This document shows, piece by piece, positions 3,654-53,793 of a stretch of DNA of 64,000 bases; the stretch's first letter is position 1, and each line of letters starts with the position of its first letter. The position numbers and the translations under genes were made by a program. The stretch comes from Gemmatimonadaceae bacterium (GTDB lineage: Bacteria > Gemmatimonadota > Gemmatimonadetes > Gemmatimonadales > Gemmatimonadaceae): the NCBI GenBank assembly GCA_019637445.1, contig JAHBVS010000001.1, positions 529,586-593,585 on the forward strand. Direction: 5' to 3'. The notes under the pieces are model-generated. The model searched no databases. It saw only the letters and a list, made by a program, of their open reading frames with translations, and was not told the origin of the DNA.

Positions 3654-3683
3654 TTGAATGGAGGGGTCTGCCCCGATTATACT
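3654..3683 (+). promoter_or_regulatory. Sigma70-like promoter of tRNA-Asn
   Basis: TTGAAT-N18-TATACT ending 10 bp before the tRNA. Confidence 0.6.
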
Positions 3684-4269
3684 ACGAGTCTATTCCGGCG
3701 TAGCTCAGTTGGTAGAGCAGGTGACTGTTAATCACCGGGTCCTCGGTTCGAGTCCGAGCGCCGGAGCTGAGAAGGTCTGCGAGGAGTGTCATGCGGAAGG
3801 CGCGTATCTCCTGTGCGGGCTGAGGGTTACCGGGCACTGGTGCGTAGCGCAGCACCAGTGCCCGCTGCGTTCTGCCGGCGCGTCGCCACTCACCCGTAGC
3901 GGAAACCGTAGCAGAGCGTTTCGGCTCCAAGGCGTTGTGCATGGCGATGTGGTCGCGCCGCTTCATCACGGCAAGGTTCTCGGGGCGGTTGTCCTGCTTG
4001 TCGTCGTTCAGGTGGTGCACGCACTCATCGGCGCGCAGTAGCCGGCCGAGCACCATCTCCGCGACGACGCGGTGCTCGTAGAGGATCGCCCTCGAGCCGC
4101 TCGGCACCCGCACGTAACCGCGGTGATCGACGTGACGGGAGCCGCGGACCGGCAACGCGCCTGGCGTGGCGATGAAGCGGTGCCGTGCGCAGACGACCTG
4201 GCCGTCGGGCAGCACCCAACCACCGGCCAGCTTCGTGGTCCCGCACTTGAGGCACGCGCGCGTCGTCAC
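3682..4269 (-). CDS. HNH endonuclease (HNH_3-like) whose frame crosses the att core; 195 aa in lysogen
   Basis: GTG overlaps integrase stop (GTGA) with GGAG upstream; YEHRVVAEMVLGRLL...VHHLNDDKQDNRPENLAVM...H..MH motif. Confidence 0.82.
   Translation of the reverse strand: MTTRACLKCGTTKLAGGWVLPDGQVVCARHRFIATPGALPVRGSRHVDHRGYVRVPSGSRAILYEHRVVAEMVLGRLLRADECVHHLNDDKQDNRPENLAVMKRRDHIAMHNALEPKRSATVSATGEWRRAGRTQRALVLRYAPVPGNPQPAQEIRAFRMTLLADLLSSGARTRTEDPVINSHLLYQLSYAGIDS
3694..3766 (+). tRNA. tRNA-Asn (GTT); 3' half supplied by the prophage
   Basis: Acceptor TCCGGCG/CGCCGGA, D-arm AGCTCAGTTGGTAGAGC, anticodon stem GGTGA/TCACC with GTT at 3727-3729, T-arm CTCGG-TTCGAGT-CCGAG; no encoded CCA. Confidence 0.97.
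3725..3768 (+). repeat. attL (17-bp exact core CTGTTAATCACCGGGTC at 3725-3741, then imperfect match)
   Basis: 38/44 identical to 53794-53837. Confidence 0.93.
3831..3864 (+). terminator. Phage-supplied hairpin downstream of tRNA-Asn (terminator or processing site)
   Basis: Perfect 13-bp stem CGGGCACTGGTGC/GCACCAGTGCCCG, 8-nt loop; weak U-tract. Confidence 0.5.
3894..3912 (+). promoter_or_regulatory. Putative integrase arm-type sites (attL side)
   Basis: CCGTAGC twice at 12-bp period (3894, 3906); same arrangement near attR. Confidence 0.55.
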
Positions 4270-5399
4270 TGCTGCGCTCCGCGACGCTTCGCCGCCTGCA
4301 TGAGATCCTCGGCCCGCGGCCGGTACTTCGCATAGAGCTTCATGGCCATCACTTCGTTCGCGTGGCCGAGGTTCGCCGAGATCAGCTTCAGCTCGTAGCC
4401 GCGCCGGGCCATCTCCACGCCGAACGAGTGCCGCGCGCCGTGCAGCGTGTAGCCCTCGCGGATCGGCACACCCTGCGCCCGCAGCGCTTCGCAGGCGGCC
4501 GCCTGCGCATCCGCATGGGCGCCGTGCGCGACGGGAAAGAGCGGAGCATCGGGCAGGAAGCCCCCGCCCCGCACGTACGAGGCGAAGAGATCCCAGCACG
4601 CGTCGTCGAGCACGATCGCCTGGCGGTCGCGGTTCGCATTCTTGCGGCCGTGCGCCCACACGACCTTCGTCGCGAGGTCCACGTCGCGCCGGCACATCGC
4701 GAGCGCGGCCTGCATCTCGAGGCCGGCCCCGTGCCGGATCGCCGCCAGCGCACGATGCGCACCCTCCGGCATCGCGTGCAGCAGGCGCACCACGTGCGGC
4801 CACTCGGCGTAGCGGTCCTTCGTGCGGTTCGCCGGCGGCAGCTTGAGTGTGCGCAACGGATTGCTCGGCAGCCGACCCGTCTCGACGCAGTAGTCGAGGA
4901 AGTGCATCCACGCGGCCGCGTGCCGGCGGCGGTTGGTCCCGCTGCCAGGCAACGCGTCGAGTCGCGCGCGCAGCGCCGGCGTCGTCAGCTGCGAGCGCCA
5001 GAGCCCGCCGGCGACGAGCGCCTGCACCTGCGCGCGGTACTTGCGGAACGTCTCGCGCGAGAACGTCTCGTCGCGCACGCGCGCCTCGAGCGCCGCGACC
5101 CACGGCTCCAGTGCCTCCGCGAGGTTGAGGTCCTCGAGCGTGGCCTGCAGCTCGTCGAGCGTGCCGCCGAGCCAGGCGTCGTAGACCGCACCGACGCGGA
5201 GCCGGCGCGCGAGGATGGCGTCTCGTACCCACAGTAGGCGCTTGCCGCGCCCGCCCAGGAGGTCGAGCATCTTCTGCATCTGGTCGGCCGTCGGCTTGTC
5301 GCGAGTGCCGGAGCTCACGCGGGCATACGGGCGCGCCGGATCCCCGGTCGGGATCGTCAGCGTCCAGGTGAGCTCGTCCTTCTTGCGGTAGGGTGTCAT
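4266..5399 (-). CDS. int: Tyrosine recombinase (integrase), 377 aa, atypical box I
   Basis: HGARHS (HxxR), LGHA, C-terminal YAKY, upstream GRK; ATG overlaps upstream stop; adjacent to attL. Confidence 0.92.
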   Translation of the reverse strand: MTPYRKKDELTWTLTIPTGDPARPYARVSSGTRDKPTADQMQKMLDLLGGRGKRLLWVRDAILARRLRVGAVYDAWLGGTLDELQATLEDLNLAEALEPWVAALEARVRDETFSRETFRKYRAQVQALVAGGLWRSQLTTPALRARLDALPGSGTNRRRHAAAWMHFLDYCVETGRLPSNPLRTLKLPPANRTKDRYAEWPHVVRLLHAMPEGAHRALAAIRHGAGLEMQAALAMCRRDVDLATKVVWAHGRKNANRDRQAIVLDDACWDLFASYVRGGGFLPDAPLFPVAHGAHADAQAAACEALRAQGVPIREGYTLHGARHSFGVEMARRGYELKLISANLGHANEVMAMKLYAKYRPRAEDLMQAAKRRGAQQ

Positions 5400-5641
5400 C
5401 CGACCTTCTTGAGCGCGCGCACGCGCGAGAGCGGGGAGTTGCGGTTCGAGCGAGCCTCGAGCAGTTCCTCGACGCGCGTCGCATCGTAGAGTCGGTGGCC
5501 GCGCACCGTCCCGTTGGGAACGGTGACGACGGCCGAGGCGAAGAATGGTCGCACGCGGTACCATGCCGCACGCTTCGAGGCGCCCGCGAGCTTGAGCTTC
5601 TCACGCAGCTCCTGTTCGGACAGCAGCGAGTCCAGACTCAT
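5396..5641 (-). CDS. Probable excisionase / recombination directionality factor
   Basis: 81-aa basic protein coupled (ATGA) to integrase; RLYDATRVEELL wing-like motif. Confidence 0.55.
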   Translation of the reverse strand: MSLDSLLSEQELREKLKLAGASKRAAWYRVRPFFASAVVTVPNGTVRGHRLYDATRVEELLEARSNRNSPLSRVRALKKVG

Positions 5642-5952
5642 GCCTCTCCCTGGGCCGTCTCGGGCCCGACGATGCGGTCCACGATCGTCGCCTGCAGGCG
5701 TCCGATTTCCTCGCGCTGTTGCCGGAGCGTCTCCGTGGCTTCGCCAAGCGCGCGACGGTGACTCGCGATCAGCTGCTCGGTCGGCGACTCGATGCCGATC
5801 GGCGCGCGGTGTCCACTGGGGCACGTGAGCGTGCCCTGCGTCGCGACGGTCACGTCGAACAGCCGCTGCTCCACCGCGAACGGCGTGCCACAGCCTGGGC
5901 ACGTCGTCACGGTGAAGCGCACCGGTGCGTCGAAGGTCGCGCGCGCAGACAT
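5638..5952 (-). CDS. Zn-finger plus coiled-coil phage protein
   Basis: CPGC...CPSGH then heptad helix; coupled to neighbours. Confidence 0.7.
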   Translation of the reverse strand: MSARATFDAPVRFTVTTCPGCGTPFAVEQRLFDVTVATQGTLTCPSGHRAPIGIESPTEQLIASHRRALGEATETLRQQREEIGRLQATIVDRIVGPETAQGEA

Positions 5953-5953
5953 G

Positions 5954-7807
5954 CTACTTGGCCTTCACCAGGTGCTTGGTGACGGCCTTCGTCATGTCGA
6001 ACATCGAGATCGCGTCCTTGCCGCCGAAGATCGGGCGCAGCTTCTCATCCGCCTTGATCATGCGGCGGTTCTTCTTGTCCTGCAGGCCGTGCTTCCTGAT
6101 GTACGCCCACAGCTTCTTGATGAGCTCGGTGCGCGGCATCGGCTTCGTGCCGACGACGGCGGCGAGCTTGGCGTCTGGCGTCACAGGCTGCATGAACTGC
6201 GCGGCTGGCTGTCGCTTGGCGACCTTCTTCTTCGGCGCCTTGGTCACCTTCACCGCCTTAGGTGCCGCGGAGGCCTTCGGCGGTGCTGTCGGCTGCTCGG
6301 CCTTCGGCGCCTCTGCCTTCGGCGTGTGCTTCTTCAGGATCGCGCCAGCGTCGATGCCGAACTGCTTGGCCATCGGCTTGAGGCGCTGCTCGAACGTCCA
6401 GCTGTCGTCGAGGCGGAAGTAGCCACCGAACGCGCGCTGCGCGAAGAGACGGCGCACCAGGTCATCGACTGTGCGCGAGGGAAGCTTGGCTAGCCGAGAC
6501 TTCCCAAGCGGCTCCCGGATGTCGCTCGAGTCCTTGATGATCGCCTGCAGCAGCGTCAACGGCTTGGCTTTGGCGATCGCAGCGAAGAGCGCGTCGAGGA
6601 GCTCCGGGGTCGCGGCTGTAAGTGCCGCCGCCTGCGCCTTCCGCGCAGCGTCCTCCTTGGCCTGCTGCTCACGCTGCTTCCGTGCGACCTCGGCCTCGCT
6701 GACCTTCTTGCCGGCCTTGCTCGTGAGCTCGCCGCGCCGGGCCTTCTCGCGGTCCTCGCGCCGCTTCACGTGCTGCGGCCAGTGCCGCTTGCAGCGGTCC
6801 TTGTTGGTGCAGACCAGGAGCGCGTGCCCGCGCGAGGCGTCGCCGGCGAACACGATACCCAGCACCGCGTAGTCGCACGTCGGCTGCCCTTGCTCGTTCT
6901 CCGCCCGCTTCCAGGAGAGGGGCCCGATCACCTTCTCGCTGCCCTTCACGCGGGGATCCACGTGCCCGAACGCGATGAAGACCTGCCGGCGCTTGGCCGC
7001 CGTCGCCGTCTCGATGGCCGCGGCCGTCGCCGGCAGCAGGTGCTCCAGCTCCGGGTGCGCCAGGTCGACGCGCACGTTGCGGTCGATCCACGCCCTCAGC
7101 TCGCGCACGGTGCGCGCCTTCTGGCCGCCGTTGTCCGGGCCGAGCAGCTTGAGCTCGTCCGGCGCGTGGCCCTCTGGCTGAAAGAGGCCTTCCTTGATCG
7201 CGCGCTTCTGGTCCGAGGTCCCGATCTTCGCGAGCTCGAGCGCATGGCCCAGCTCGATGCGGCCGTCCTCGAGGAGGCTCACGGCCTTCTCGTCGAGCTT
7301 CAGCAGCCGCAGGCGGTCGCGCACGTAGTCGACCGAGACGCCCGAGCGCTCGGCGATCTTCTCGACGGTCCAGCCCTCGAGGCGCTTCTGCAGGAGCGCA
7401 TAGCCGCGCGCCTCCTCCATCGGCTGCAGGTCGCGCCGCTTCAGGTTCTCGAACGTCAGCGCCTCGAGGAACTCGGCGTCGCCGAGCGGCCGCACGACGC
7501 ACTGCAGGTGCGTGAGGCCCGCCTTGCGCGCGGCACGGAGGCGGGTGGCGCCGGCAGCGAGCTCGTAGCGGCCGATCGCTTTCGGGTTCGGGCGCACCAG
7601 CGCGTGCGTCAGCTGGCCGCTGGCGAGCATCGACGCCGCGAGCTCGTCGATCCATGCCGCGGGGAAGTGCTTGCGTGGGTTGTCCGGGCTCTCGTCGATC
7701 AGCGAGAGGCCGATCGCCTCGACGCGCGCCTCGCCCGCGCGCTCCATCGCGCGCATCGAGGCCTCGCGGTTGGTCGGAGCGTCCTGTCGTTCCATGGTTG
7801 CCGTCAT
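5954..7807 (-). CDS. ParB/Spo0J-like protein fused to C-terminal SWIB/MDM2 domain
   Basis: NPRKHF, YELAAGATRLRAA, ENLKRRDL, HTH; K/A/P linker; FMQPVTPDAKLAAVVGTKPMPRTELIKKLWAYIRKHGLQD...MFDMTKAVTKHL. Confidence 0.9.
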   Translation of the reverse strand: MTATMERQDAPTNREASMRAMERAGEARVEAIGLSLIDESPDNPRKHFPAAWIDELAASMLASGQLTHALVRPNPKAIGRYELAAGATRLRAARKAGLTHLQCVVRPLGDAEFLEALTFENLKRRDLQPMEEARGYALLQKRLEGWTVEKIAERSGVSVDYVRDRLRLLKLDEKAVSLLEDGRIELGHALELAKIGTSDQKRAIKEGLFQPEGHAPDELKLLGPDNGGQKARTVRELRAWIDRNVRVDLAHPELEHLLPATAAAIETATAAKRRQVFIAFGHVDPRVKGSEKVIGPLSWKRAENEQGQPTCDYAVLGIVFAGDASRGHALLVCTNKDRCKRHWPQHVKRREDREKARRGELTSKAGKKVSEAEVARKQREQQAKEDAARKAQAAALTAATPELLDALFAAIAKAKPLTLLQAIIKDSSDIREPLGKSRLAKLPSRTVDDLVRRLFAQRAFGGYFRLDDSWTFEQRLKPMAKQFGIDAGAILKKHTPKAEAPKAEQPTAPPKASAAPKAVKVTKAPKKKVAKRQPAAQFMQPVTPDAKLAAVVGTKPMPRTELIKKLWAYIRKHGLQDKKNRRMIKADEKLRPIFGGKDAISMFDMTKAVTKHLVKAK

Positions 7808-8349
7808 CCTGCCCTGCCCTCCATTCGGTTGGTGCGGGCCGCGAACAGCTGGCCCGCGATGCTGATCACCTCCGCCGACCCTGCGTAGAGCCCGTGCTTG
7901 GTCAGAACTGGCACCGCGTGCTCCGCCGCGGCGCTAAGCAGTTGCAGGTACTGCTGGAGATCGGTCGCTACGCCGCGGCGCACGCCGACCTCGACCATCC
8001 ACGTGCCGTTGCCCTTCCGCCGCTTCGTCAGCGTGAGCGCGAAGTGGACGAGCGGCACCGCCAGAAAACCGCGATCGCCAGGCGGCAGGCCGGAGGTGTC
8101 GAGAGGCCGCGCCAGCGCGCCGCTCGTGAGCAGCCCGCCCTCGATCTCGACCAGCGGCACGAAGCCGCGCACGAGCTGGGCATCCGGCTGCCGCGTGCCG
8201 CGGAAGCGGAGCGCGAAGGGCCCGACGTTGGGCTCGTGCGCGTGCACGAGGTCGCAGTACGAGACATCGAGCACGAGTGGCTCGTCGAGCGACAGCCGGA
8301 ACGTCCGCTCGATGGGGCGTTCGCTGCGCACGGTGGCGGGTGCCGTCAC
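7804..8349 (-). CDS. Hypothetical phage protein
   Basis: 181-aa ORF with start/stop overlaps on both sides. Confidence 0.7.
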   Translation of the reverse strand: MTAPATVRSERPIERTFRLSLDEPLVLDVSYCDLVHAHEPNVGPFALRFRGTRQPDAQLVRGFVPLVEIEGGLLTSGALARPLDTSGLPPGDRGFLAVPLVHFALTLTKRRKGNGTWMVEVGVRRGVATDLQQYLQLLSAAAEHAVPVLTKHGLYAGSAEVISIAGQLFAARTNRMEGRAG

Positions 8350-8624
8350 TTCTCCTCCAGCTCGAGCAGCAGCTCGCCGAATCGATGGTCCACGGTGTCG
8401 CCGAGCTCGCAGATCTTCGCGACCCGCTGGAGCTTCCGGACCGCCATGAAGAGCGCGATCGACTCCAGCGAATGGTTGCGCGGCGCGCGCGGCGCCTGGG
8501 TGATCGCGATGTTGAGCTGGTCGCCGATCGCATCGAAGGCGAGCGCGAGCTTCGTGGACGCGGCGCCGGCGTCGAGCTCCTGCTGCTCTTGGATCCTGAT
8601 GTCCCGCTCATTCGGAGGCGTCAT
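8346..8624 (-). CDS. Hypothetical phage protein (92 aa)
   Basis: ATG at 8624 overlaps upstream TGA. Confidence 0.65.
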   Translation of the reverse strand: MTPPNERDIRIQEQQELDAGAASTKLALAFDAIGDQLNIAITQAPRAPRNHSLESIALFMAVRKLQRVAKICELGDTVDHRFGELLLELEEK

Positions 8625-9097
8625 AGGTCGACGTCCACCGGCGGGCCCAGGAAGCGGCAGCGCTCCCAGTGCGTATGGAAGACGGACGGATGCCGATTGC
8701 CGGCGTCCTGCAGGCGCGCGTGCACGAACTCGTGCCGCCACGCGGCGTGCTCGTCTAGGCTCGGCCGCACGACGACCATGTGCGCGTCGCGGAAGTAGAA
8801 GCCCATCCAGAGCAGCGCGCTGTGGGACTCGAGCCAGCCGGGAGTGCCAGGCGGCACGCGCCAGAGGCGCAGCGTGGTGTCCGGGCTCTCGTCGAGACCG
8901 ACGCAGCGCATGACGTCGCGCCACTCCGCCTGGATGGAGTCCGTCCACGGGATCTGCTCGCCGCCGTAGAGCTGGACGGGCAGCGGCGCGATGTAACCGC
9001 GAGGCGTCAGCATGCCGGCGAGCACGAGCAGGATCAGTCCTGTGCCGAGGACCTTTGCGACACGCTGCCGGCGCGCGCGATCGGGGCTAGTGGCCAT
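8621..9097 (-). CDS. Membrane-anchored putative zinc metallopeptidase (HExxH)
   Basis: N-terminal basic stretch plus hydrophobic helix VLGTGLILLVLAGML; WRHEFVHARLQDAGNRH. Confidence 0.65.
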   Translation of the reverse strand: MATSPDRARRQRVAKVLGTGLILLVLAGMLTPRGYIAPLPVQLYGGEQIPWTDSIQAEWRDVMRCVGLDESPDTTLRLWRVPPGTPGWLESHSALLWMGFYFRDAHMVVVRPSLDEHAAWRHEFVHARLQDAGNRHPSVFHTHWERCRFLGPPVDVDL

Positions 9098-9614
9098 TGG
9101 CGATCTCCTGGCGCACGCGCTGCATATCGTCGGTCGGCTGTTCGTGCCTGAGCAGACCACTCCCCTGGGCTCGCACGCGCTTGAGGACCTCGTCGGCCTC
9201 CGGGGCACAACCGAGGACACCCGAAGCCCACCCGATTAGCTCGGAGATCACGCCGATCAGCCGCTGCCGCTGGGTCCGGAGCTCGTGGTCGCTCGTCGCG
9301 AACGCGCGCTCCTTCGCCTCGACCTTCTCTAGCAACGCCGCCTTCTCCGCCTCGGCGACGTCGCGCCACCACTGCTGGCGCTCGGCCTCGCGCAGCGCGG
9401 CCGCGATGAGCTCGCGCCGCGGCGGAATCACGTTGCCGGCGGCGCAGTCCTTCGCGGAGTCCAGCAGCTGCCGCTCCATCGCGTCTTCCGGGTGCGGCAT
9501 CGGCGGCATCACCGCGCGCGCGGAGCGGTCCGCCTCGAGCGCGAGCTGCGCGAGGTCGATGTGCAGGACCGACGGCGCGCCGTTGGTCAGGTAGTCGATC
9601 GCGGGCGCGCTCAT
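9087..9614 (-). CDS. Hypothetical coiled-coil phage protein
   Basis: ATG overlaps upstream stop (ATGA). Confidence 0.65.
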   Translation of the reverse strand: MSAPAIDYLTNGAPSVLHIDLAQLALEADRSARAVMPPMPHPEDAMERQLLDSAKDCAAGNVIPPRRELIAAALREAERQQWWRDVAEAEKAALLEKVEAKERAFATSDHELRTQRQRLIGVISELIGWASGVLGCAPEADEVLKRVRAQGSGLLRHEQPTDDMQRVRQEIANGH

Positions 9615-9949
9615 GCGGAGACCCTCCGGCCGCACCGCGGCTCGAAGCGCAGGAGCAGTCGGCCCGTCGTGCGGTCGATGTGCTTCTGGATGCCGAGGAT
9701 GTCGTGCGTGAAGTCGAACGCCGGCAGCGTGATCAGGCGCTCGAGGTCCAGGGGCGCATCGTTCGCCATGACGGCGGCGAGATCCATCTCCAGGCTCGTC
9801 TGCGGATCCACGGCCCCGGTGTCGGCCGTTAGGTCGACGATCCCGTCACGGACGGCTCGGCGCGCAATCGCGGCGATCACCGCGTTGTCGTCGGCGCTCA
9901 CGTTGAAGCTGACCGGGCGCCGGCGGCGCTTCTTCGTCGCGGCGCTCAT
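9611..9949 (-). CDS. Conserved phage protein (DUF6874-like)
   Basis: LEMDLAAV...PLDLERL...FDFTHDILGIQKHIDRTTGRL..F.PR motif. Confidence 0.7.
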   Translation of the reverse strand: MSAATKKRRRRPVSFNVSADDNAVIAAIARRAVRDGIVDLTADTGAVDPQTSLEMDLAAVMANDAPLDLERLITLPAFDFTHDILGIQKHIDRTTGRLLLRFEPRCGRRVSA

Positions 9950-10479
9950 GCGGTAGCCCTCACCGGCAGCGCCATCGCCTGCAGGCGCAGCGCGCGTGCC
10001 CGCTCAGACATGGTGGCGGCCACGCGTGCGCAGAGATCGGCTTCCTCGTAGAGGCCGGCGGTGGTCGCGCCGTTCACGCGGCGGCGCATCTGCAGCACGT
10101 CCTCGTCGGCGTCCATGCGCTGTTCCTCCAGGTCGATGGCATCGAGGGAGCGCGGGACCGCCCCCGCGAGCTCGAAAGCCGTCTCGTACAGGACCTCCGC
10201 GAACCGCAGCAGCTCGGCGAGGTTCGCCCCCGACCGACGGAGCCGCTCCATCTGGTGCATCACCACCGCCAGCGCCGACTGCCCCGCGTAGGCCTTGCTG
10301 TGCGCCTTGTCCAGCTGGTGGTCCCGCCCGCCGGCGTGCAGCGCGCGCCGCACGGCGCCCCGCTTCATCACCGCGGCGTAGGCCCGCCGGACCACGGCGT
10401 CGCAGTCCCCCACGAACCGCACCGCCTCGCGCATCGCGCGGCGTCCTGCAAAGCCACCCGCCTCCGTTGCTCGCGCCAT
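9946..10479 (-). CDS. Hypothetical helical phage protein, possibly regulatory
   Basis: AGGAGG 5 nt before ATG 10479; stop overlaps next ATG. Confidence 0.65.
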   Translation of the reverse strand: MARATEAGGFAGRRAMREAVRFVGDCDAVVRRAYAAVMKRGAVRRALHAGGRDHQLDKAHSKAYAGQSALAVVMHQMERLRRSGANLAELLRFAEVLYETAFELAGAVPRSLDAIDLEEQRMDADEDVLQMRRRVNGATTAGLYEEADLCARVAATMSERARALRLQAMALPVRATA

Positions 10480-10555
10480 CCCCGCCTCCTGGTCAATCGT
10501 CCGGTATGCCCTGTGCCCTGCCCTGCCCATCCGATGCCCGCGCTCCACCACGCCG

Positions 10556-10759
10556 CTAGGCGGCGGGGAGTGCGGGAGTGTTCTGCTTGCGCTTGAATCG
10601 CTCGACGTCGCGCGAGATCGCGGCGTACATGAAGGCGCTGCGCGTGAGGCCCTTGGCCTTGGCGGCCGCGTCGAGGTCCTCGACCTCATCCACTGGGTAG
10701 CGGAAGGTGAGGATCGCGCCCAGTCCCTTGCGCTTGCGACGGGTGACGTTGGCTGACAT
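10556..10759 (-). CDS. Ribbon-helix-helix (Arc/CopG-like) regulator in the Cro position
   Basis: ILTFRYPVDEVEDLDAAAKAKGLTRSAFMYAAI fits the RHH pattern; divergent from repressor. Confidence 0.8.
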   Translation of the reverse strand: MSANVTRRKRKGLGAILTFRYPVDEVEDLDAAAKAKGLTRSAFMYAAISRDVERFKRKQNTPALPAA

Positions 10760-10805: not shown

Positions 10806-10834
10806 AGAATATGGCCGGACCTTTACGGTGTCAA
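10806..10834 (-). promoter_or_regulatory. Strong leftward early sigma70 promoter
   Basis: TTGACA-N17-TATTCT on - strand, 46 bp upstream of the RHH ATG. Confidence 0.8.
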
Positions 10835-10874: not shown

Positions 10875-11333
10875 ATGTTGGTAGAGCAGGCGCGGCAGGC
10901 AGCGCGCAGGGCGGTGGACGGTTCGAGCCTTCGGCGCGTGTCGTCCGAGATCGGCATCTCGCACCAGACGCTGGCCGACTTCATCGCCGCTGGCTCAACG
11001 CGAAGCCCGTACGGATCGTCGAGGGAGAAGCTGTTGGCATGGGCGCGGGCCAACGGCGCGCGCGAGCCCGGGGCTGATCAGCTGAACTTCTACCGCGGGA
11101 AGCAGGAAGCGCTGATGGGCATGATGCAGTACATCGTCTCACAGCAGGCGGAGATCGGAGCCTTCATGGACCGACTCCGTTCAGGAGAACCGGAGGATGA
11201 GCGACGGCCACGCCAGCGCACCCACGAGGAGCTCAGCCGAGAAGTCGAAGGTGCTGAAGCTGACGCCGAACTTCTTGCTCGACTGCAGTCTCTGCAGAAG
11301 TCCGCTGAGAAGAAGGGGAAGAAGCGGGCGTGA
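10875..11333 (+). CDS. XRE-type HTH repressor candidate (no S24 peptidase domain)
   Basis: SLRRVSSEIGISHQTLADFIAAG HTH, divergent from RHH gene. Confidence 0.78.
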   Translation: MLVEQARQAARRAVDGSSLRRVSSEIGISHQTLADFIAAGSTRSPYGSSREKLLAWARANGAREPGADQLNFYRGKQEALMGMMQYIVSQQAEIGAFMDRLRSGEPEDERRPRQRTHEELSREVEGAEADAELLARLQSLQKSAEKKGKKRA

Positions 11334-11678
11334 GGACTAGCGGCTCGAGGGCGCCGGTGTTGAGGGCCACCAGGATGGCGCCGTAGTCGAGGTCACGTCG
11401 ACGCGACTGCACGAACGGCGGATGGCCTGGCATTCGGTCCCAGCGCACGAGATCCTCGGCGCGAATCTTCAGCACCGGCACATCATCCACCGCCCGCAGC
11501 CACAGCCTCGTCTCCGCCATGCCCCTATCCTCGCCTGTCGCCCCTGTTTCGGAATCCGTTCGGTAATGTAGCTGCCGTGGGGAGCCTCGCAACCTGACCT
11601 AGGGCGACTGGTTTCGGCACGTGACCTGCAGCACATTGGCGCAGATACACACCAAACCCTTCACTTGTTCGAGGGCTC

Positions 11679-12317: not shown

Positions 12318-12321
12318 TCCG

Positions 12322-13380
12322 ATGAGTGGCATCATGGAGCGCGTAATCGACGAGACTCCCGTCGCGATCATCGACTTCGAAACCACGGGCCTCTCGCCCA
12401 AGTCACTGTGTAGAGTGGTTGAGGTGGCGGTGGTCCGGGTGAATCCCAATGGTGGCCACCACGTCGTGTACGACTCGCTGGTGGATCCTGGCGGGCCCGT
12501 TGCCTGCTCCAGCATTCACGGCATCTTCGACGAAGACGTTGTCGGAGCTCCGTCGTTCGTCGATGTCCTCGAGCCGCTGGCAGCCGCGCTCCGCGGGTGC
12601 GTCGTGCTCGCATTCAATGCCTCGTTCGACATGGCGTTCCTCCACTCCGAACTGGCCTTCGCGCTCAAGCGATCGGAGTCGCCGCTGCGGGTGCCGTACG
12701 GCTGCCTGATGTATATGCGCCCCGCCATCGGCATTGGGCCGCGCTGCGGGCTGCACGACGCCGTCTCTCACCACGACATCCCAGCGCCGGACCATCGCGC
12801 CGCACACGACGCGCTCGCCGGCGCACTGCTGTGGCAAGTCTATCGAGAGCACATGCGCGCGCGCGGCATCCGCACGTTCGGCGATCTCGCGGCGCGGAAG
12901 CACTACAAGTTCATGGAGAGCTGGGAGTTCGATCCGCTGCGTGGTGATGCCCTTGGGGACGTCGCGGTCCCCGCGAGCCGACTGCACTCGAAGCCACGCG
13001 TCACGCCGATCACGTACCCCGACCACGATGCAGTCGCAGCGGTGCAAGAAGCCGCTGCAGCGGAGCACTCGAATCGAGTGCGCCGGCGCGTGCGCGCGCT
13101 CCGCATCGGCGGCTATGCCCATGCACTGGTGGACGCGTTCGCGGATGCCATCATGACGCCGGAAGAGTTCCACTCCCTCGAGCGACTGCAGCGCGAACTC
13201 GAGCTCACTCCCGGCGAGATTCGGTCGGTGCATGCCGACTTCTACTCGGCGGTCTTGATGACATGCGTCGAGGATGGGTTCGTCTCGCACCAGGAGTCGA
13301 AGAACATCGCCGAGGTTGGCAGCATTCTTCGGGACCTCGGCTGGGCACCGGGCGATAACAGCGCACCCGCCGCGCCGTGA
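12322..13380 (+). CDS. DEDDh 3'-5' exonuclease (DnaQ-like) fused to TerB-like domain
   Basis: IIDFETTG, AFNASFD, HRAAHDA; C-terminal tandem DAIMTPEE / DGFVSHQE helical motifs; GAGGAG RBS. Confidence 0.85.
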   Translation: MSGIMERVIDETPVAIIDFETTGLSPKSLCRVVEVAVVRVNPNGGHHVVYDSLVDPGGPVACSSIHGIFDEDVVGAPSFVDVLEPLAAALRGCVVLAFNASFDMAFLHSELAFALKRSESPLRVPYGCLMYMRPAIGIGPRCGLHDAVSHHDIPAPDHRAAHDALAGALLWQVYREHMRARGIRTFGDLAARKHYKFMESWEFDPLRGDALGDVAVPASRLHSKPRVTPITYPDHDAVAAVQEAAAAEHSNRVRRRVRALRIGGYAHALVDAFADAIMTPEEFHSLERLQRELELTPGEIRSVHADFYSAVLMTCVEDGFVSHQESKNIAEVGSILRDLGWAPGDNSAPAAP

Positions 13381-13595: not shown

Positions 13596-14725
13596 GTCCC
13601 GATCCGTTCTTCAAGGGTGTCAAGGAGTGGGGCCACTACAAGCACCGCATCCTCTCCAAGTACCTGACTATCTGGGTGCGCAAGCTCGGGTCACGGCACA
13701 AGACGCTCGCCTTCGTCGACTCGTGCGCCGGGTCCGGGTACTACGACGACGACACGGCAGGGTCCCCAATCATCGCGGCGCGCCTGAACGACGCGCCCGA
13801 CCGCGGCAATCACGCGCGGGTGATGGTCTTCGCCTGCGAGCAGAACGATGAGAACTACGCGCGGCTCGCCACGGCATTGCGGCCGTGGATCCAGCGGTCG
13901 CCGCAGCTCGCGGATGCGCTTCACGGCCCGTTCCAGCTTTTCCTCGAGTCGATCGTGCAGGTCACGGAGCGCTGGCCGACGTTGTTTTTCATCGACCCGT
14001 ACGGGATGAAGGACGTGAGCATCGACGCCCTCACACCGATCCTGGAGAACCAGAGCGCGCGCAAGGAGCTCATCGTGCGGGTGCCGCCCGGCATCCTCAG
14101 CCGCTGGTGGGGGCGCCTGCAGGAGCGACCGACCAGCGAGCGCCACGCGCGCGAGCTCGACGCCTTCCGCCGCAACCTGGAGGCGTGCAACGTCGACCCG
14201 GCGTTCGCGGAGATGTTGAAGTCCGCCGAGTTCACCGGCGCGGACCGGCAGCAGGCCTTGCTCGAGCGCTACCTGGTCCCGATCTACGAGCGCTTCCGCT
14301 GGGTGCAGCTCGTGCCGATCAAGGCGACGTTCACCGGCGCGCCGCGCTACTTCATCCTGCACGCGACCGACAGCCCCGATGGCTGCGCCTACCTCAACGA
14401 CGTGGCGAGCGCGCTGCGTGACGAGCTCTATGCGACCACGGAGCAGCGGCGCGATGCCGCGCTGGGACAGGGCAGCCTCTTCGGGCCGCTGCCGGCGCCG
14501 CGCACCGTCTCGATGCGCGAGCTCGAGGAGCTGCTGCTCGAGGAGCTCCGGCACACCGGCGGCGCCCCATGGATCGAGCTGCGCGCCATGCTCGCGTCGG
14601 TCTTCGGCCCGGAGTTCCGGAAGAAGGACCATGTGCAGGCTCTACGACATCTCGTGTCGCGCCACCAGGCCCGGCCCTTCGAGGGCGCAGAGCCCGAGGA
14701 CCGCGAGACCGTCACGCCGGCCTAG
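13592..14725 (+). CDS. Three-Cys-motif partner protein (TcmP), SAM-dependent methyltransferase-like fold
   Basis: KHRILSKYL, FVDSCAGSG, GSPIIA, FFIDPYG; paired with DUF5131 gene. Confidence 0.85.
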   Translation: MSPDPFFKGVKEWGHYKHRILSKYLTIWVRKLGSRHKTLAFVDSCAGSGYYDDDTAGSPIIAARLNDAPDRGNHARVMVFACEQNDENYARLATALRPWIQRSPQLADALHGPFQLFLESIVQVTERWPTLFFIDPYGMKDVSIDALTPILENQSARKELIVRVPPGILSRWWGRLQERPTSERHARELDAFRRNLEACNVDPAFAEMLKSAEFTGADRQQALLERYLVPIYERFRWVQLVPIKATFTGAPRYFILHATDSPDGCAYLNDVASALRDELYATTEQRRDAALGQGSLFGPLPAPRTVSMRELEELLLEELRHTGGAPWIELRAMLASVFGPEFRKKDHVQALRHLVSRHQARPFEGAEPEDRETVTPA

Positions 14726-15581: not shown

Positions 15582-15610
15582 TTGCATTTTACCGTTAGAG
15601 GTATTATTAT
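15582..15610 (+). promoter_or_regulatory. Sigma70 promoter of toxin-antitoxin pair
   Basis: TTGCAT-N17-TATTAT in an AT-rich gap. Confidence 0.75.
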
Positions 15611-15637
15611 CAATGCACACCCTGAACGAGGTGAGCA

Positions 15638-39849: not shown

Positions 39850-40003
39850 AAAGCGCCTCGTGGAGCGGTGGGCTCGTTCACGAGGCGCAGGGTGCAAGCG
39901 CGGATAGTTTGGGCGCTACGGTTCTGGTTATCGGATGTGGTGAATCTATCCCCACCAGCAATTTTTTCCGCCTGTTTTCAGGCGATGAGCGGTGCAATCA
40001 CCA

Positions 40004-43487: not shown

Positions 43488-43550
43488 TATCGCCTCCTCT
43501 CTGAGTCGTGTGCCGCAAGCCAATGACCTCGGCAATATCGCGTGTGGCCG

Positions 43551-44794: not shown

Positions 44795-45135
44795 GTGGCC
44801 TCCCGGGATGGCGGTCCGCGTCGGAATCCGAGCGCAGGGCGCCCGGTCTGACGCGCACACGGCGGTTCCACCAGGTGGCTCGGCGAGATGTAGCCGCATC
44901 CGCCGGAGCAGCGCAGATGGAATCCATAGCCCTCACACGAGTCGCACGTCACGTTCTCGTCGGGGTCGAGGCAGCAGCACGAATCCTCGCCGCAGTCGTG
45001 GCCGTCCACGCCCTCGCCACCGCAGCGTTCGCACTCGTCCTCGTCGACGCTGGCGCCGCACTCCGAGCACGTGATCTCCACGCGCGCCCTGGGGTCGCGC
45101 GGGTCCGGTGCGTGAAAGATCGCAAAGGCCGCCAT
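44791..45135 (-). CDS. Cys-rich zinc-finger protein (DnaJ-like CxxCxGxG pair)
   Basis: CERCGGEG...CDSCEGYG plus extra Cys. Confidence 0.7.
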   Translation of the reverse strand: MAAFAIFHAPDPRDPRARVEITCSECGASVDEDECERCGGEGVDGHDCGEDSCCCLDPDENVTCDSCEGYGFHLRCSGGCGYISPSHLVEPPCARQTGRPALGFRRGPPSREAT

Positions 45136-45407
45136 CAGACACCCCCCGGCGGGTTCCGCCGCTCGATCTCGACGCAGTACTCGCGCAGCGTCTCGGCGGC
45201 GCGGGCAGCCGGGATGCGCGAAGGCCTGGGGTTGGCGCCGCGGCCCCTGAGAACAACGCCGTGCCGTCGGAGCGCCCGCACGATGCTCGAATGGTCGTTG
45301 CCGAGGCGCACACCGATCTGCGTGGTCGACCAGCCAGCCGCGTAAAGCGCTTTCGCGCGCGCTACGTTGACTGGTCGGTAAGGCTTGGGCGGTCGACGCG
45401 GGCTCAC
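45135..45407 (-). CDS. Small HTH DNA-binding protein
   Basis: ALYAAGWSTTQIGVRLGNDHSSIVRALRRHGV. Confidence 0.75.
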   Translation of the reverse strand: MSPRRPPKPYRPVNVARAKALYAAGWSTTQIGVRLGNDHSSIVRALRRHGVVLRGRGANPRPSRIPAARAAETLREYCVEIERRNPPGGV

Positions 45408-46852
45408 GCAGCACCTCCGCTGGGTGGTGGCAGCAGCTCCGGCTGCTTGTCCCGCTCCCGCTGTGCCTCGATCGCGAGCTTCCTCAGCCGCGGCGACACC
45501 ACGCGAAGGCGCGGGCCGTCCCAGTCCAGCGTGACCGTGCCGACCGCGCCGGACTTCTGCTTGGCCAGGTTGATCTCGATCGTGTCCGGTGCGCTCGGGT
45601 TGTACATGATGTCGCGGTAGAGCAGCCACGTGTGGTCGGCCGCCTGCCGGATGCCCGACGAGCCCTGGATGTCGCGCAGCTGCGGCCGCTTGTCCGGCCG
45701 GTCCTCGATCTGCTTGTCGTTCGGCTGCGCCAGGGCGATCACCACGACGTTGAGCTCGAGCGCCACCGCCTTGAGCCGGTAGGCGATGCGCCGCAGCTTC
45801 GCCTCGCCCAGCTCCCCGCGCTCCGCCTCGCGCGACTGCAGGAGCTGCAGGAAGTCGACGCCGATCGCGATGAGCCCGGGCTCCCGCGCCTTGAGCAGCC
45901 GGCAGCGGTTCACCACGTCCTCGATGTCCGGCATCACCGTGTCGTCGACGTAAATCGCCTGGTTGAGCAGCCGGCCTGCCGCGGCCGCCAGGCGGCCCAT
46001 CTCCTCGGCCGTGATCTTGCCGCTCTTGAGGTGCGCCCGCGCCACCTCGCCCTCGGCCGCCAGCGCACTCTCGAGGAGCATCCCCTCGGTCATCTCCGCC
46101 GACACGAAGCCGACGGCGCCGAGGCCCGACAGCGTGAGGTCGCGCAGCAGGTTCCACACGAGCGTGGTCTTCCCGCAGCTGGGCACGCCGGACACGACGA
46201 CCAGCTCGCCGCGCTCAAGGCCGCCATTGAGCTTGTCGTCGAGCTCTGGCAGGCCCGTGGCCACCAACGCGACGGCCGTGCCGTTGTGCCGCTGCTCGAC
46301 ACGCTCCATGGCCGCCCAGAGGCCCTCCTTGATGCGCCGGAACCCCTGCTCACCCTCGCCGGCCGCCAACGGCGACAGCGAGCGGCTCGCCCAGGCGAAC
46401 AGGTCGTCGATCGCGACCGTCTCGTCCTGCGCCATGCGCTGCATCTGCACGGCCATGGCCCGCAGCTCGCGCCGGCGGTAGTACTCGCGCACGATCCGGG
46501 CGTGCGCCATCGCGTGCTCGTGCGTGGGCAGCTCGTCGTAGAGCGGGCCGATGTACTCCTTGCCGCCGGCCGCGGCGAGCGTGCCGTTGGCCGTCAGCTG
46601 GTTCGCGAGCGTGAGTGGATCCACCACGACGCCGGCGTGGCGCAGCTGCTCCATCGCCTCGAACAGGAGCCGATGGCTGCCGCGGCCGAACATCTGCGGC
46701 TGCAGTACCGTGGCGATCGCCGTACCCGTGCGGTGCTTGTCCTCGGCGCCGGCCATGAGCACGGCTGCCAGCACCGCGCGCTCGGCGTCGTCGCTGACGA
46801 GGAAGGGCTTCTCCTTGGGTGCGATCTCGAACGTGATGGGTTGCGTGGTCAT
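45404..46852 (-). CDS. dnaB: DnaB-like replicative helicase
   Basis: AERAVL, Walker A GVPSCGKT, SAEM, VDFLQL, GSSGIRQAAD, NLAKQKSG. Confidence 0.93.
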   Translation of the reverse strand: MTTQPITFEIAPKEKPFLVSDDAERAVLAAVLMAGAEDKHRTGTAIATVLQPQMFGRGSHRLLFEAMEQLRHAGVVVDPLTLANQLTANGTLAAAGGKEYIGPLYDELPTHEHAMAHARIVREYYRRRELRAMAVQMQRMAQDETVAIDDLFAWASRSLSPLAAGEGEQGFRRIKEGLWAAMERVEQRHNGTAVALVATGLPELDDKLNGGLERGELVVVSGVPSCGKTTLVWNLLRDLTLSGLGAVGFVSAEMTEGMLLESALAAEGEVARAHLKSGKITAEEMGRLAAAAGRLLNQAIYVDDTVMPDIEDVVNRCRLLKAREPGLIAIGVDFLQLLQSREAERGELGEAKLRRIAYRLKAVALELNVVVIALAQPNDKQIEDRPDKRPQLRDIQGSSGIRQAADHTWLLYRDIMYNPSAPDTIEINLAKQKSGAVGTVTLDWDGPRLRVVSPRLRKLAIEAQRERDKQPELLPPPSGGAA

Positions 46853-51589: not shown

Positions 51590-51643
51590 TGCTGCCTCCA
51601 ACTCCGTGGTGGTGTGATTCGTCCAGTTGTCCCAGGCACCGCG

Positions 51644-52000: not shown

Positions 52001-52003
52001 CCG

Positions 52004-52749: not shown

Positions 52750-53027
52750 GTCGCGGACCCTCGCGCGTGCGCCGCCGCCTGGCGGTCGCCCTCGAGGCGC
52801 GTCTCCACCGCGCGCTGCACATCGGCCGCGATGCGCCGCTCGCGCTTGGTCGCTGGCGTCTGGTGCGCCTCGAGCCACGCGGCCGCCGCGCTGAGCAGCT
52901 CCTGCACGAGCAGGCCCGCCAATGCGCCGGCGCCGAGCAGGAGGTAGTCGCCCTGCGTCCGCTGCAGCACGAACGTGGCCAGCACCAGCGCGATGGCCAG
53001 CCGGATCCCCACGCCGCGGGCCGTCAC
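52746..53027 (-). CDS. Small membrane protein
   Basis: Two hydrophobic segments; coupled. Confidence 0.6.
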   Translation of the reverse strand: MTARGVGIRLAIALVLATFVLQRTQGDYLLLGAGALAGLLVQELLSAAAAWLEAHQTPATKRERRIAADVQRAVETRLEGDRQAAAHARGSAT

Positions 53028-53272
53028 GAGTCCGCTCCGTGGATGATCTTGCGCTCCATCCGCTCGACGGCCCAGAAGTAGAACGGGAGCATCCAGCCGA
53101 GCACCGCGGCGAGCACGAGTACCGCGACGCGGACCAGCAGCGTGACGGACCGCCGCTCGTGCTGCAGCTCATCGACCAGCTGCAGCGCGTACCACAGGCT
53201 GCCGGCGAGCCCCACGATCACCCACCACGCCCACCACGGCACGAGCCCGAGTTCCCAGAGGAGGTCGTCCAT
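53024..53272 (-). CDS. Small membrane protein
   Basis: Two hydrophobic segments; coupled. Confidence 0.6.
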   Translation of the reverse strand: MDDLLWELGLVPWWAWWVIVGLAGSLWYALQLVDELQHERRSVTLLVRVAVLVLAAVLGWMLPFYFWAVERMERKIIHGADS

Positions 53273-53661
53273 CAGTCCGTCCCTCCCGCCACCGCCGCGA
53301 GCGCGGCCAGGCTACGGCGATGGCCTTCGACCGTGCGCTGCGCGGCGCGGGCGCGCTTCGCCGCCTTCGAGCGCTGGCGCAGCCGGTTCCGCGCGATCGC
53401 CGTGAACTCGTGCGGCGCGGTCGGCGTGCGCACGTCGCGGTAACGACGAAGCGCCTTGAGTGCGGCGCGCTCCCAGCGCGTGAGCTGGTGCCCCGACTCC
53501 GTGCGCATCGCCTCTGTGCTCACGAGCTGCGCGTAGGCAGCCCGCGCCTCTTCGCGCGACTCGATCTGGTCCGGGATCTGGAGGCCGCGCCCGTCGACGG
53601 CTGGCTTGAGCGGCCCCTCAGCGCATGGCAGCGGGATGCTGCGAACCGAGACGCCGTTCAT
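53272..53661 (-). CDS. First gene of the right (replication/late) arm, hypothetical
   Basis: GGAGGT RBS; ATG 53661 overlaps TGA 53658-53660 of the att-spanning frame. Confidence 0.65.
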   Translation of the reverse strand: MNGVSVRSIPLPCAEGPLKPAVDGRGLQIPDQIESREEARAAYAQLVSTEAMRTESGHQLTRWERAALKALRRYRDVRTPTAPHEFTAIARNRLRQRSKAAKRARAAQRTVEGHRRSLAALAAVAGGTD

Positions 53662-53686
53662 GGGCGACCTCCACCGAGACCGAAAC

Positions 53687-53705
53687 CCGTAGCGAGTTCC
53701 GTAGC
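53687..53705 (+). promoter_or_regulatory. Putative integrase arm-type sites (attR side)
   Basis: CCGTAGC twice at 12-bp period (53687, 53699). Confidence 0.55.
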
Positions 53706-53793
53706 GGCGAGTGTCCCGATTCGGGTGCGGTTCGGGACAAGCTGAGACGCCCTGAGACTCTGATGAGTGGCGCGCCGAGGGGCGCCCACTCGC

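Follow-up and report, generated by a model that had tools for sequence, protein, structure and literature searches.

The attP site of the prophage described here lies inside a co-directional gene array and inside an ORF that appears to be translated, and comparison of related phages supports conservation of the overlapping in-frame junction that this creates. Since the ORF containing attP links int to the replication genes, integration would split the operon and excision probably must rejoin it. We consider the fuller proposal evenly poised: integration cuts one long operon, and excision has to restore the array before the replication arm can be expressed, which would place the logic of Tn916 in a tailed phage. 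The feature itself is real and is a variant of known att-in-operon and att-in-gene systems, the closest precedents being Tn916, Mx8 and BPs.

Prophage ends and the ORF across attP

The window, meaning the whole 64-kb stretch of DNA that we analysed, carries a 50,069-bp prophage in a tRNA-Asn gene. The features at and near its ends are the following.

3694-3767, plus strand: tRNA-Asn (GTT), called by ARAGORN
3725-3741: attL core, 17 nt exact, CTGTTAATCACCGGGTC, with the extended repeat reaching 3768
53794-53837, plus strand: attR, consisting of the core (53794-53810) and the displaced native tRNA-Asn 3′ half
3682-4269, minus strand: att-crossing ORF, lysogen form, 195 aa, with HNH_3 at its head
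3949-4077, minus strand: HNH_3 endonuclease domain (Pfam PF13392), ORF residues 65-107
3894-3912, minus strand: P-arm arm-type direct repeats GCTACGG-N5-GCTACGG, 159 nt from the T-arm anchor
3832-3863, no strand assigned: 12-bp perfect hairpin between the P arm and the core
53687-53705, minus strand: P′-arm arm-type repeats GCTACGG-N5-GCTACGG, 117 nt from the anchor
53658-53793, minus strand: P′ arm of attP; on the circle it supplies the crossing ORF with a different 3′ end of 45 codons

An earlier sequence-only reading of this DNA had referred to a tRNA and to a core shared by attL and attR, and both were borne out: positions 3725-3768 and 53794-53837 form a 44-nt direct repeat, 86% identical, around the exact 17-nt core, with a spacing of 50,069 bp. 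The 5′ part of the tRNA gene is bacterial and the phage supplies the 3′ part from the core onward. A related strain, L104, whose left flank is 98.3% identical to that of the window, carries an empty attB, and the attR fragment matches the 3′ half of its intact tRNA at 44 of 44 positions, so the attL 3′ half is phage-derived; the T stem is CTCGG/CCGAG in the window versus the native ACAGG/CCTGT in L104. Because it is the attR fragment and not the attL 3′ half that matches the empty attB, the crossover falls within the 17-nt core, as the earlier reading had assumed. With an integrase at one end, repeats of a tRNA 3′ half and an empty attB, the element has the marks of a temperate phage with a lambda-type tyrosine-integrase att. 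The L085 and L086 contigs are permuted or broken at the core, an indirect hint of excision and integration. The phage family probably infects Gemmatimonadota-like, high-GC hosts.

In the lysogen, the crossing ORF runs from a GTG at 4269, in a GTGA overlap with the int stop (4266-4268), to a stop at 3682, ending in DPVINSHLLYQLSYAGIDS, which agrees with the 195 aa previously proposed. Joining 53793 to 3725 in silico also gave the expected product, a 226-aa ORF that reads ...DPVINRRVGAP...GLGGGRP and whose TGA (53658-53660) overlaps the ATG at 53661 of the 129-aa gene gp129. After the core, the lysogen form has 14 C-terminal residues versus 45 in the circle form. Overlaps of this ATGA type had been described as usual in the operon. 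The 58 minus-strand prophage genes meet at 57 junctions, of which 23 are indeed 4-nt overlaps and a further six 1-nt overlaps.

The claim that an HNH gene crosses attP stood in part. The frame does cross the site, and PF13392 matches residues 65-107 alone (E=1.1e-12; 47.8 bits versus a curated cut-off of 24.8), with PHROG HNH families also matching the domain and H85, H86, N98, H107 and H111 invariant among relatives. The identity as an HNH gene did not stand, since the HNH-less relatives L094, L096, L090, L101 and L085 keep a short ORF in the same place and frame. HNH is missing in most relatives, and in L003 the domain lies on the opposite side of the core. These comparisons make the HNH domain an accessory part of the crossing ORF, inserted in frame and patchy in its distribution.

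Predicted Int arm-type repeats flank the core at −159 and +117, with equivalent pairs in L003 and L101, and the 117-nt distance is also found in the real attP of L003. GCTACGG-N5-GCTACGG with matching spacing adjoins int in L001, L098, L094, L090, L096 and L101; clear arm repeats were not found in L085. The distance from arm repeat to core is 159, 150, 105 or 90 nt (that of L101 being read from the sequence), and all differences are multiples of 3. The P-arm repeats read as ATVSAT in the translation of the crossing ORF. The hairpin architecture is common to five relatives, with compensatory stem changes, and in L094 an A tract and a T tract lie on either side of it; a similar GC hairpin follows the native tRNA in L104. 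The window's hairpin is probably a surrogate terminator for the rebuilt tRNA gene. The position of this terminator-like hairpin, between int and the core, counts against read-through into the replication arm.

The gene array and its promoters

The two arms of the prophage contain these features.

4266-5399, minus strand: tyrosine integrase (Pfam PF00589)
5396-5641, minus strand: small gene upstream of int, conserved at this position in every relative
5954-7807, minus strand: ParB_N / HTH_ParB / SWIB fusion protein
10556-10759, minus strand: first early gene, ribbon-helix-helix (Arc-like), weak matches
10806-10834, minus strand: early promoter TTGACA-17-TATTCT
10875-11333, plus strand: divergent candidate repressor, HTH seen by eye
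17189-53661, minus strand: right arm, an uninterrupted array of replication, packaging, head and tail genes to the end of the array
40339-43033, minus strand: terminase small (42290-43033) and large (40339-42312) subunits
45404-46852, minus strand: DnaB-type replicative helicase
53272-53661, minus strand: gp129, first right-arm gene, 129 aa, with a GGAGG Shine-Dalgarno

The integrase family in our search has 31 members, the window's own copy and 30 relatives. The int stop at 4266 lies 525 nt before the core, and that of the HNH-less relatives about 125-145 nt before it. Family searches (Pfam, PHROG) with the small gene at 5396-5641 gave no match, and we infer a Xis-like role for it from position only. 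As the sequence-only reading had claimed, there is a single strong sigma70-type promoter: the site at 10834-10806 is the sole match to TTGACR-N15-19-TANNNT in the whole window. It reads outward, co-directional with the genes at the other prophage end. Relatives have cTTGACA at the equivalent position, and promoters in these genomes are recognisable as AT-rich TTGACA sites. The candidate repressor found no match in a family search; homologs occupy the same position in L094, L098, L090 and L101, and L085 has an HTH_3 protein there.

Every called gene between 17189 and 53661 is on the minus strand, the direction previously noted for the right arm. No family match was found for gp129, and a homolog 56-58% identical lies immediately after attP in L101. 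Since gp129 carries its own strong Shine-Dalgarno, coupling is unnecessary for its translation. The statement that no recognisable promoter heads the right arm also held, with no sigma70-like site on the minus strand from 54000 to 53600 even at 7/12 with normal spacing. Over 17000-54200 no such site reaches 9/12; consensus scans are insensitive to weak or activator-dependent promoters, and in L085 a strict scan overlooked the early promoter. Two long gaps in the right arm (609 nt at 44795-45403 and 489 nt at 39850-40338), together with weak 8/12 matches at 43516 and 40088, could hold activator-dependent promoters, so the late genes at least may have one of their own.

Conservation of the junction in relatives

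The proposal had been made to depend on the in-frame junction being conserved in relatives, and it is present in L101 (ATGA), L085 (ATGA) and L003 (GTGA). All three are real attP forms in which early genes, int, attP, replication genes and terminase follow one another contiguously. In L101, an IMG/VR contig (int 69% and TerL 82% identical to the window's), the int stop TAA overlaps the ATG at 8250 of a 91-aa attP-crossing ORF that has an ATGA end at the gp129 homolog. L085, a 48,421-bp contig recovered circularly permuted from two samples, has the chain int, GTGA, 75-aa ORF, ATGA, 103-aa crossing ORF, ATGA and a non-homologous first right-arm gene. In L003, an ORF opens with an ATGA at the int stop and passes through arm repeats, core, arm repeats and HNH to a GTGA end. 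The crossing ORFs of these three traverse the hairpin and the core, and the arm repeats also except in L085; L085 and L101 are syntenic with the window's in-silico circle. Overlapping ORFs form an unbroken chain across attP in all four attP forms, and another crossing ORF in attP form, P0045, carries arm-repeat peptides before and after the core.

Each of the ten lineages has a single open antisense-tRNA frame. In nine of them it is open from a start codon located at the int stop; L085 is the exception, its frame opening where the int-coupled 75-aa ORF stops. In shuffled sequences an open frame has a probability of 0.15-0.45 per lineage, with a product over eight lineages of ~6e-5. At the peptide level, the distal segments of the crossing ORF show no conservation among the window, L101 and L085. 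A codon-usage signal is absent from the tail of the window's crossing ORF, and no third-position bias was found there in comparison with L001 or L002. Between the tails of L001 and L002 there is a third-position bias (11, 6, 22; p=0.006), which suggests a tail that is translated and weakly constrained.

Integration, excision and alternative readings

Transfer genes of Tn916 are expressed on circularisation, from Porf7 across the joined ends (PMC11658703, citing Celli and Trieu-Cuot 1998). As in the window, co-directional genes beyond att have no promoter of their own when integrated, which here means that no consensus promoter was found by scans that are insensitive. A promoter at the other end of Tn916 reads over the rebuilt joint with a terminator in its path (PMC11658703), and that of the prophage would do likewise. 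Tn916 is, however, an ICE whereas the window's element is a tailed phage, and its joint has not been reported to lie in a translated ORF with start/stop coupling, read-through being via an RNA antiterminator. In myxophage Mx8, attP lies inside the coding sequence of intP/intX and integration gives the ORF a new 3′ end; the high-GC host, tRNA gene target and attP within an ORF are shared (PMC6070905). The split ORF of Mx8 is int itself, whereas here int ends before attP and a small ORF or HNH fusion coupled to int is split; an Mx8-type attP within int was rejected given the int stop at 4266. Integration-dependent immunity in mycobacteriophage BPs and clusters G, I, N and P also places attP in an ORF next to int, with prophage and viral forms that differ at the C-terminus (PMC4557955). 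In those phages the ORF encodes the repressor, and a degradation tag is lost through the swap. In contrast, 7 kb separates the window's candidate repressor from the split ORF, in which neither a regulatory domain nor a tag is recognisable. On the circle the ORF ends ...GLGGGRP with no ssrA-like ...AA, and the L101 and L085 endings are unrelated to it. BPs-type immunity was rejected since the core lies in the HNH fusion or small ORF and the candidate repressor at 10875-11333.

In lambda sib regulation, an RNase III hairpin beyond attP controls int and integration separates the hairpin from int, and the P2 split-operon idea proposes that int loses its promoter on integration. The likeness is that integration parts sequences co-transcribed with int over attP, so that prophage and circle differ in expression. 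The window's hairpin, unlike that of lambda, stays on the int side, and the separated part is the replication and late arm; with the conserved hairpin between int and the core, sib-type retroregulation was rejected.

On the circular genome, ~58 lytic-strand genes form one co-directional array that starts at one strong early promoter beside the immunity region. attP sits mid-array between int and the replication genes, in the order arm repeats, hairpin, tRNA-derived core, arm repeats. It is covered by the crossing ORF, which overlaps the int stop with its start codon and the first replication-arm gene with its stop codon; in the window's phage, an HNH_3 domain is inserted in frame at the head of this ORF. 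Integration breaks the array at the core, leaving the promoter, early genes, xis-like gene, int and HNH at attL, while the arm for replication, packaging, morphogenesis and lysis comes to lie at attR, where no promoter is recognisable. Upon induction, the early promoter would make the recombination proteins, and transcription with its coupled translation would get to the replication arm only after excision had rebuilt attP. Translation of the crossing ORF may keep RNA polymerase moving through ~300 nt of attP, a stretch holding a hairpin that probably terminates the opposite-strand tRNA transcript. That ribosome-coupled read-through of attP serves as an excision checkpoint, with replication and later genes expressed only after the circle forms and the crossing ORF existing to carry RNA polymerase past the hairpin, is a tentative proposal on which we lean towards doubt.

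It is possible, if unlikely, that the architecture is real and has no regulatory consequence, the right arm having weak or activator-dependent promoters that go unrecognised for that reason. The crossing ORF might then be kept through compaction, to shield the int message from Rho at its 3′ end, or to neutralise the tRNA-terminator hairpin in the int-ward direction. The low sensitivity of consensus scans, exemplified by L085, the two long gaps with their 8/12 matches, the Shine-Dalgarno sequences borne by gp129 and its counterparts, and the terminator-like hairpin after int all favour this account. However, the P′ arms of the window, L101, L085 and L003 have no promoter-like site, in genomes where promoters are conspicuous, and the distal stop/start overlap is kept even with a non-homologous downstream gene, which is hard to square with independent arms.

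We think it improbable that the protein is the point, with integration swapping the C-terminus of an HNH nuclease or small ORF product and altering its stability or activity. The two forms truly differ after the core, the L001 and L002 tails show third-position bias, and the BPs repressor and Mx8 IntP/IntX are precedents, but HNH is missing from most relatives and beyond the core in L003, the tail peptides that are conserved fall on DNA elements (arm repeats, hairpin, antisense tRNA), distal segments are not conserved as peptides, and the window's tail has neither a coding signal nor an ssrA-like ending. Because the HNH domain is a patchy accessory, and because the ATVSAT tail motif is translated Int arm-type repeats, the C-terminus swap that the sequence-only reading had ascribed to a nuclease is probably incidental, a by-product. 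Chance is very improbable: long open frames are common in 70% GC DNA, where an ATGA ending could be coincidental, the window alone gives an open-frame chance of 0.3-0.4 per segment and the crossing frame is also spuriously open for 640 codons across int, but the arrangement recurs in 10 lineages, in sequences otherwise unalignable, with start codons at the int stop, a stop overlapping the next gene in 4/4 attP forms and indels in multiples of three.

If rejoining of the operon by excision holds, a tailed phage would have a simple physical means of making excision precede replication, an expression logic documented so far in the conjugative transposon Tn916. The unexcised prophage would then not replicate in situ, a process that damages the chromosome and underlies lateral transduction. 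The excision checkpoint would be the opposite of the delayed excision and in-situ replication behind lateral transduction. The recombination site, with its arm sites, core and terminator hairpin, would also have to function while translated, so that DNA sites and reading frame are both constrained and spacings differ by multiples of three. For annotators, ORFs antisense to tRNA halves beside integrases are usually dismissed as artefacts and are conserved here, and an operon present only on the excised circle can go unseen in the gene order of a prophage.

Attachment sites, gene order and the empty site

The prophage measures 50,069 bp and sits in the sole tRNA gene that ARAGORN found in the window, with the 3′ 44 nt of tRNA-Asn (3725-3768) repeated at 53794-53837 at 86% identity (repeat family D16). 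The first 17 nt of the two copies, CTGTTAATCACCGGGTC, are identical and form the core, and the copies differ at six positions, all compensatory changes in the T stem. A related prophage-free strain (ENA ERZ2606016, 3.39-Mb contig) has an intact tRNA-Asn and a left flank 98.3% identical to window positions 1-3771. Its tRNA-Asn 3′ half (locus L104) matches the window's attR fragment at 44 of 44 positions, so the T stem at attL (CTCGG/CCGAG) is phage DNA and the crossover lies inside the 17-nt core. The in-silico attP proposed in the sequence-only reading, with 53793 joined to 3725, is therefore the right one.

In the prophage-free strain, tRNA-Asn and the window's right flank are ~26 kb apart on one contig (L104 5600-5910, L102 6860-6910), with genes for very large Ig-like (Big_2) proteins (2086+, 4027+ and 955 aa) between them, and homology with the window restarts only at 53945, past window positions 53838-53945. 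This interval reflects either another insert at the same tRNA there or loss in the window's lineage.

Genes were called with a codon-usage caller. Every called gene in 3682-10759 and 17189-53661 is on the minus strand, and genes in 10.9-17.2 kb are mainly on the plus strand. Neighbouring minus-strand genes overlap by 4 nt at 23 of their 57 junctions and by 1 nt at 6. The right arm opens with ~10 small genes that have no family match. Between its att sites the prophage carries a co-directional, largely overlapping gene array, and this array is split at attP.

Main features of the prophage
3694-3767, plus strand: tRNA-Asn
Left arm, in order: RHH/Arc-like gene (weak hits), DUF6874, ParB_N-HTH_ParB-SWIB, two small conserved genes, tyrosine integrase (int), HNH_3
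From ATG 10875, divergent: ORF with a helix-turn-helix seen by eye, candidate repressor
45404-46852, minus strand: DnaB helicase, right arm, after the small genes
Right arm past DnaB: endonuclease-like genes, TerS, TerL, then structural genes

The gene at 5954-7807 (minus strand) encodes ParB_N and HTH_ParB joined to a SWIB/MDM2 domain at the C-terminus (E=1.6e-26), and its homologs, among the relatives listed with precomputed Pfam hits, are ParB proteins without SWIB. The 11-17 kb block, mainly transcribed against the lytic array, holds a DUF5131 gene (14722-15468, minus strand) with an upstream near-consensus promoter, TTGATA-16-TAAAAT, at 15586-15613 (minus strand), an RNase_T-family exonuclease (12322-13380) and a DUF2283-HTH_17 protein. 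At 36713-36897 (minus strand), GAG/GAC-rich repeats spaced by 12 nt encode an acidic low-complexity stretch in the 525-aa gene 36348-37925.

The reading frame across attP

In the lysogen, the minus-strand ORF that passes through the core (the crossing ORF) has its start codon, GTG 4269, in overlap with the int stop (4266-4268); it lies antisense to the tRNA and reaches its stop at 3682 after 195 aa, ending SHLLYQLSYAGIDS. With 53793 joined to 3725 in silico it becomes a 226-aa ORF ending GLGGGRP, whose TGA (53658-53660) overlaps ATG 53661 of the first right-arm gene, gp129 (129 aa), with GGAGG upstream. The junction of 53793 with 3725, both ORFs and the overlap at 53661 had been described from the sequence alone, and all of these figures proved correct on recomputation.

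Two of the three antisense frames of the tRNA 3′ half have stops (TGA and TAA in ggTGATTAAcag), so any core-crossing ORF is confined to the third. The codon-usage signal in the crossing-ORF frame is lost below ~3915. Just past the HNH domain, at 3894-3912, lies GCTACGG-N5-GCTACGG, translated as ATVSAT, and the same pair recurs in the same orientation on the other arm at 53687-53705; placed at -159 and +117 nt relative to the T-arm anchor, these are putative arm-type repeats of a lambda-like attP. The ATVSAT peptide was rejected as protein-level conservation of the tail (the part of the ORF past the HNH domain), since HNH-less relatives, and the second arm of attP, carry the same DNA repeat. 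A 640-aa ORF overlapping int (3682-5604, minus strand) was discarded as an alternative-frame artefact of GC3-rich int codons; it illustrates the ease with which long spurious ORFs arise, and similar ones lie over int in the lysogen ends L098, L099 and L090. AlphaFold on the 195-aa ORF with a 4-sequence alignment gave a mean pLDDT of 54, too poor for judging tail disorder.

Among 50,697 phage records, megablast with the two prophage halves found matches to the tRNA alone. Searching IMG/VR with the single proteins int and gp129 yielded nothing, nor did looking up gp129 by exact match; neither JGI metagenome scan gave a productive match, and the 80 loci from an HNH alignment against IMG/VR and GTDB genomes had only the HNH_3 domain in common. 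A large protein collection held two close HNH homologs, L001 and L002, which are int-HNH-tRNA-Asn lysogen ends with the same read-through, and a third, L003, that is arranged differently. A profile of four integrases yielded 31 family members including the window's own, one of them named from a Gemmatimonadaceae MAG, and genomic contexts were taken for 7 of the 31. Scanning IMG/VR with the 31-sequence integrase alignment gave contig L101, a close relative of the window phage (int 69%, TerL 82%).

L101 carries left-arm homologs, int, a 3′ fragment only of the tRNA, and then homologs of gp129, g53024, g52396, DnaB, TerS and TerL; it is the in-silico circle as physical DNA. A 91-aa ORF, already annotated by JGI as a hypothetical protein (P0042), begins at ATG 8250 in overlap with the int stop TAA (8248-8250) and traverses GCTACGG-N5-GCTACTG, a hairpin, the core and the second arm repeat before its TGA (8523-8525) overlaps ATG 8522 of the gp129 homolog. 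A second attP form, L085, is a 48,421-bp contig syntenic with the window in both arms; a contig of equal size in a second sample begins elsewhere, at the core, and these differing start points suggest a circular genome. From int its chain runs through GTGA, a 75-aa ORF, ATGA and a 103-aa core-crossing ORF to an ATGA at the first right-arm gene, which has no homology to gp129, and clear 12-spaced arm repeats were not found in its attP. In L003, an ATGA at the int stop opens an ORF of arm repeats, core, arm repeats, zinc ribbon and HNH domain that ends in GTGA, and in a fifth attP-form ORF, P0045, arm-repeat peptides flank the core on both sides. The junction within a gene is thus conserved in relatives, as the start/stop overlaps are retained in L101, L085 and L003. 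Several metagenome contigs from the L085 phage have their break right in the att core (L086, end 11533; L087, end 5712) where another sample's contig continues, a pattern compatible with coexistence of integrated and free forms in the populations sampled.

The lysogen ends L098 and L099 have the HNH fusion as in the window, and L094/L095, L096/L097 and L090-L093 are without HNH. In the HNH-less lysogens a start codon stands at the int stop (TAAccGTG, TAGcGTG, TGATG), preceded by GGGAGG encoded in the final int codons, and the open frame spans the arm repeats and hairpin into the core. Nine of ten lineages have the crossing frame open from a start codon at the int stop, and in the tenth, L085, it is open from the stop of the 75-aa ORF, itself coupled to int. 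The arm repeat stands 159 nt from the anchor in five lineages, 105 nt in two and 90 nt in two (including L101), and a spacing of 150 nt also occurs; the differences are all multiples of 3 rather than of a helical turn. Tail differences between L001 and L002 fall by codon position as [11,6,22] (p=0.006), which suggests a tail translated under weak constraint; comparisons involving the window were not significant. A conserved ORF, predicted to be translated, spans attP and is coupled at both ends.

Promoters and expression of the right arm

On the excised circle, transcription from the early promoter would run on across attP, and if the replication arm relies on it, excision would have to come before replication; we consider the case for this reading evenly balanced. 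The promoter in question, at 10806-10834 (minus strand) directly upstream of the RHH gene, had been singled out as the only strong early one, and it is indeed the sole match to TTGACR-N15-19-TANNNT in the 64 kb. The earlier claim that no recognisable sigma70 promoter heads the right arm also held: strict scans found no sigma70-like site on either strand of 17000-54200, and a relaxed scan of the minus strand at 54000-53600 gave nothing beyond one 7/12 match whose spacer is 19 nt long. An early promoter with a near-consensus cTTGACA, set in an AT-rich control region, is present in every relative, so such promoters are conspicuous in these genomes, and none of this type was found in the P′ arms of L085 and L003.

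The right arm may instead be driven by independent promoters, which we regard as less likely. The strict scan was insensitive, having overlooked the L085 early promoter, and late promoters that depend on an activator could lie in the right-arm gaps of 609 and 489 nt or at the 8/12 matches at 43516 (upstream of TerS) and 40088. Operator-like words common to the early promoter region and these gaps gave nothing convincing.

A switch at the protein level, through the swapped C-terminus, seems very improbable to us. The swap of a nuclease C-terminus put forward in the sequence-only reading is real at the level of the ORF and probably incidental to the nuclease, given how patchy HNH is among relatives. 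The HNH domain covers residues ~41-131 (Pfam and PHROG; Pfam core 65-107). Of the integrases nearest to the window's (L096 73%, L094 71%, L098 71%, L101 69%), only that of L098 is accompanied by HNH; an unrelated 75-aa ORF takes the HNH position in L085, and in L003 (1603-2304) the domain is distal to the core. This distribution makes the domain look like an accessory mobile insert, placed in frame into an older att-crossing ORF. L003 has no in-frame start codon between core and domain, so integration there would part the nuclease from its start codon.

That the crossing ORF is a chance product is scarcely credible: composition-matched shuffles give an open frame with probability 0.15-0.45 in each lineage, with a product over 8 lineages of ~6e-5, a value that somewhat overstates significance because the lineages share ancestry.

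The hairpin near the core and possible read-through of attP

A 12-bp perfect hairpin lies between the P-arm repeats and the core in the window, and a strong hairpin occupies this place in 8 of 10 lineages.

Hairpin positions
Window: 3832-3863
L094 (lysogen end): 11176-11206
L090 (lysogen end): ~11190-11230
L096 (lysogen end): ~10710-10750
L101 (attP form): ~8290-8330
L085 (attP form): ~11445-11480

Five lineages share one layout (outer stem, 2x2 internal loop, 4-bp stem, NNTAA pentaloop) with differing stem sequences, and a hand-trimmed alignment, whose trimming biases the result, has both-side changes in 7 of 11 pairs and 98% of cells paired. Rfam recognized no known RNA family for the hairpin in L101 or L003; its tRNA hit in L003 was rejected as a tRNA, being the att core plus a 5′ part unable to pair. 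The empty-site strain has a GC hairpin lacking a U tract ~20 nt downstream of its native tRNA, and the most parsimonious interpretation is that the hairpin of the phage may stand in for the displaced tRNA terminator. The L094 hairpin has an A tract on one side and a T tract on the other and could therefore work in both directions, which argues against unimpeded read-through from int.

Returning to transcription across attP, translation of the crossing ORF may be what lets polymerase through, a step we infer more weakly. A ribosome close behind the polymerase could stop the hairpin forming, a possible reason why the region stays translated.

Lambda sib and the split-operon idea for P2 concern int expression, whereas in the window the replication arm is at stake; the hairpin was rejected as a sib analogue because of its position between int and the core. 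In the literature searched we found no tailed phage described with an array split at attP like this, which is weak evidence of absence. The int gene of Mx8 (PMC6070905) and the repressor gene of BPs (PMC4557955) have attP within the coding sequence and a 3′ end altered by integration, but the window's int stops short of attP, and its split ORF does not encode the repressor. In Tn916 the genes for DNA processing and conjugation have no promoter when integrated and are expressed after circularisation from Porf7 through a terminator (PMC11658703), the same logic as proposed for the window prophage, whose replication arm would depend on transcription that crosses attP once the phage has excised.
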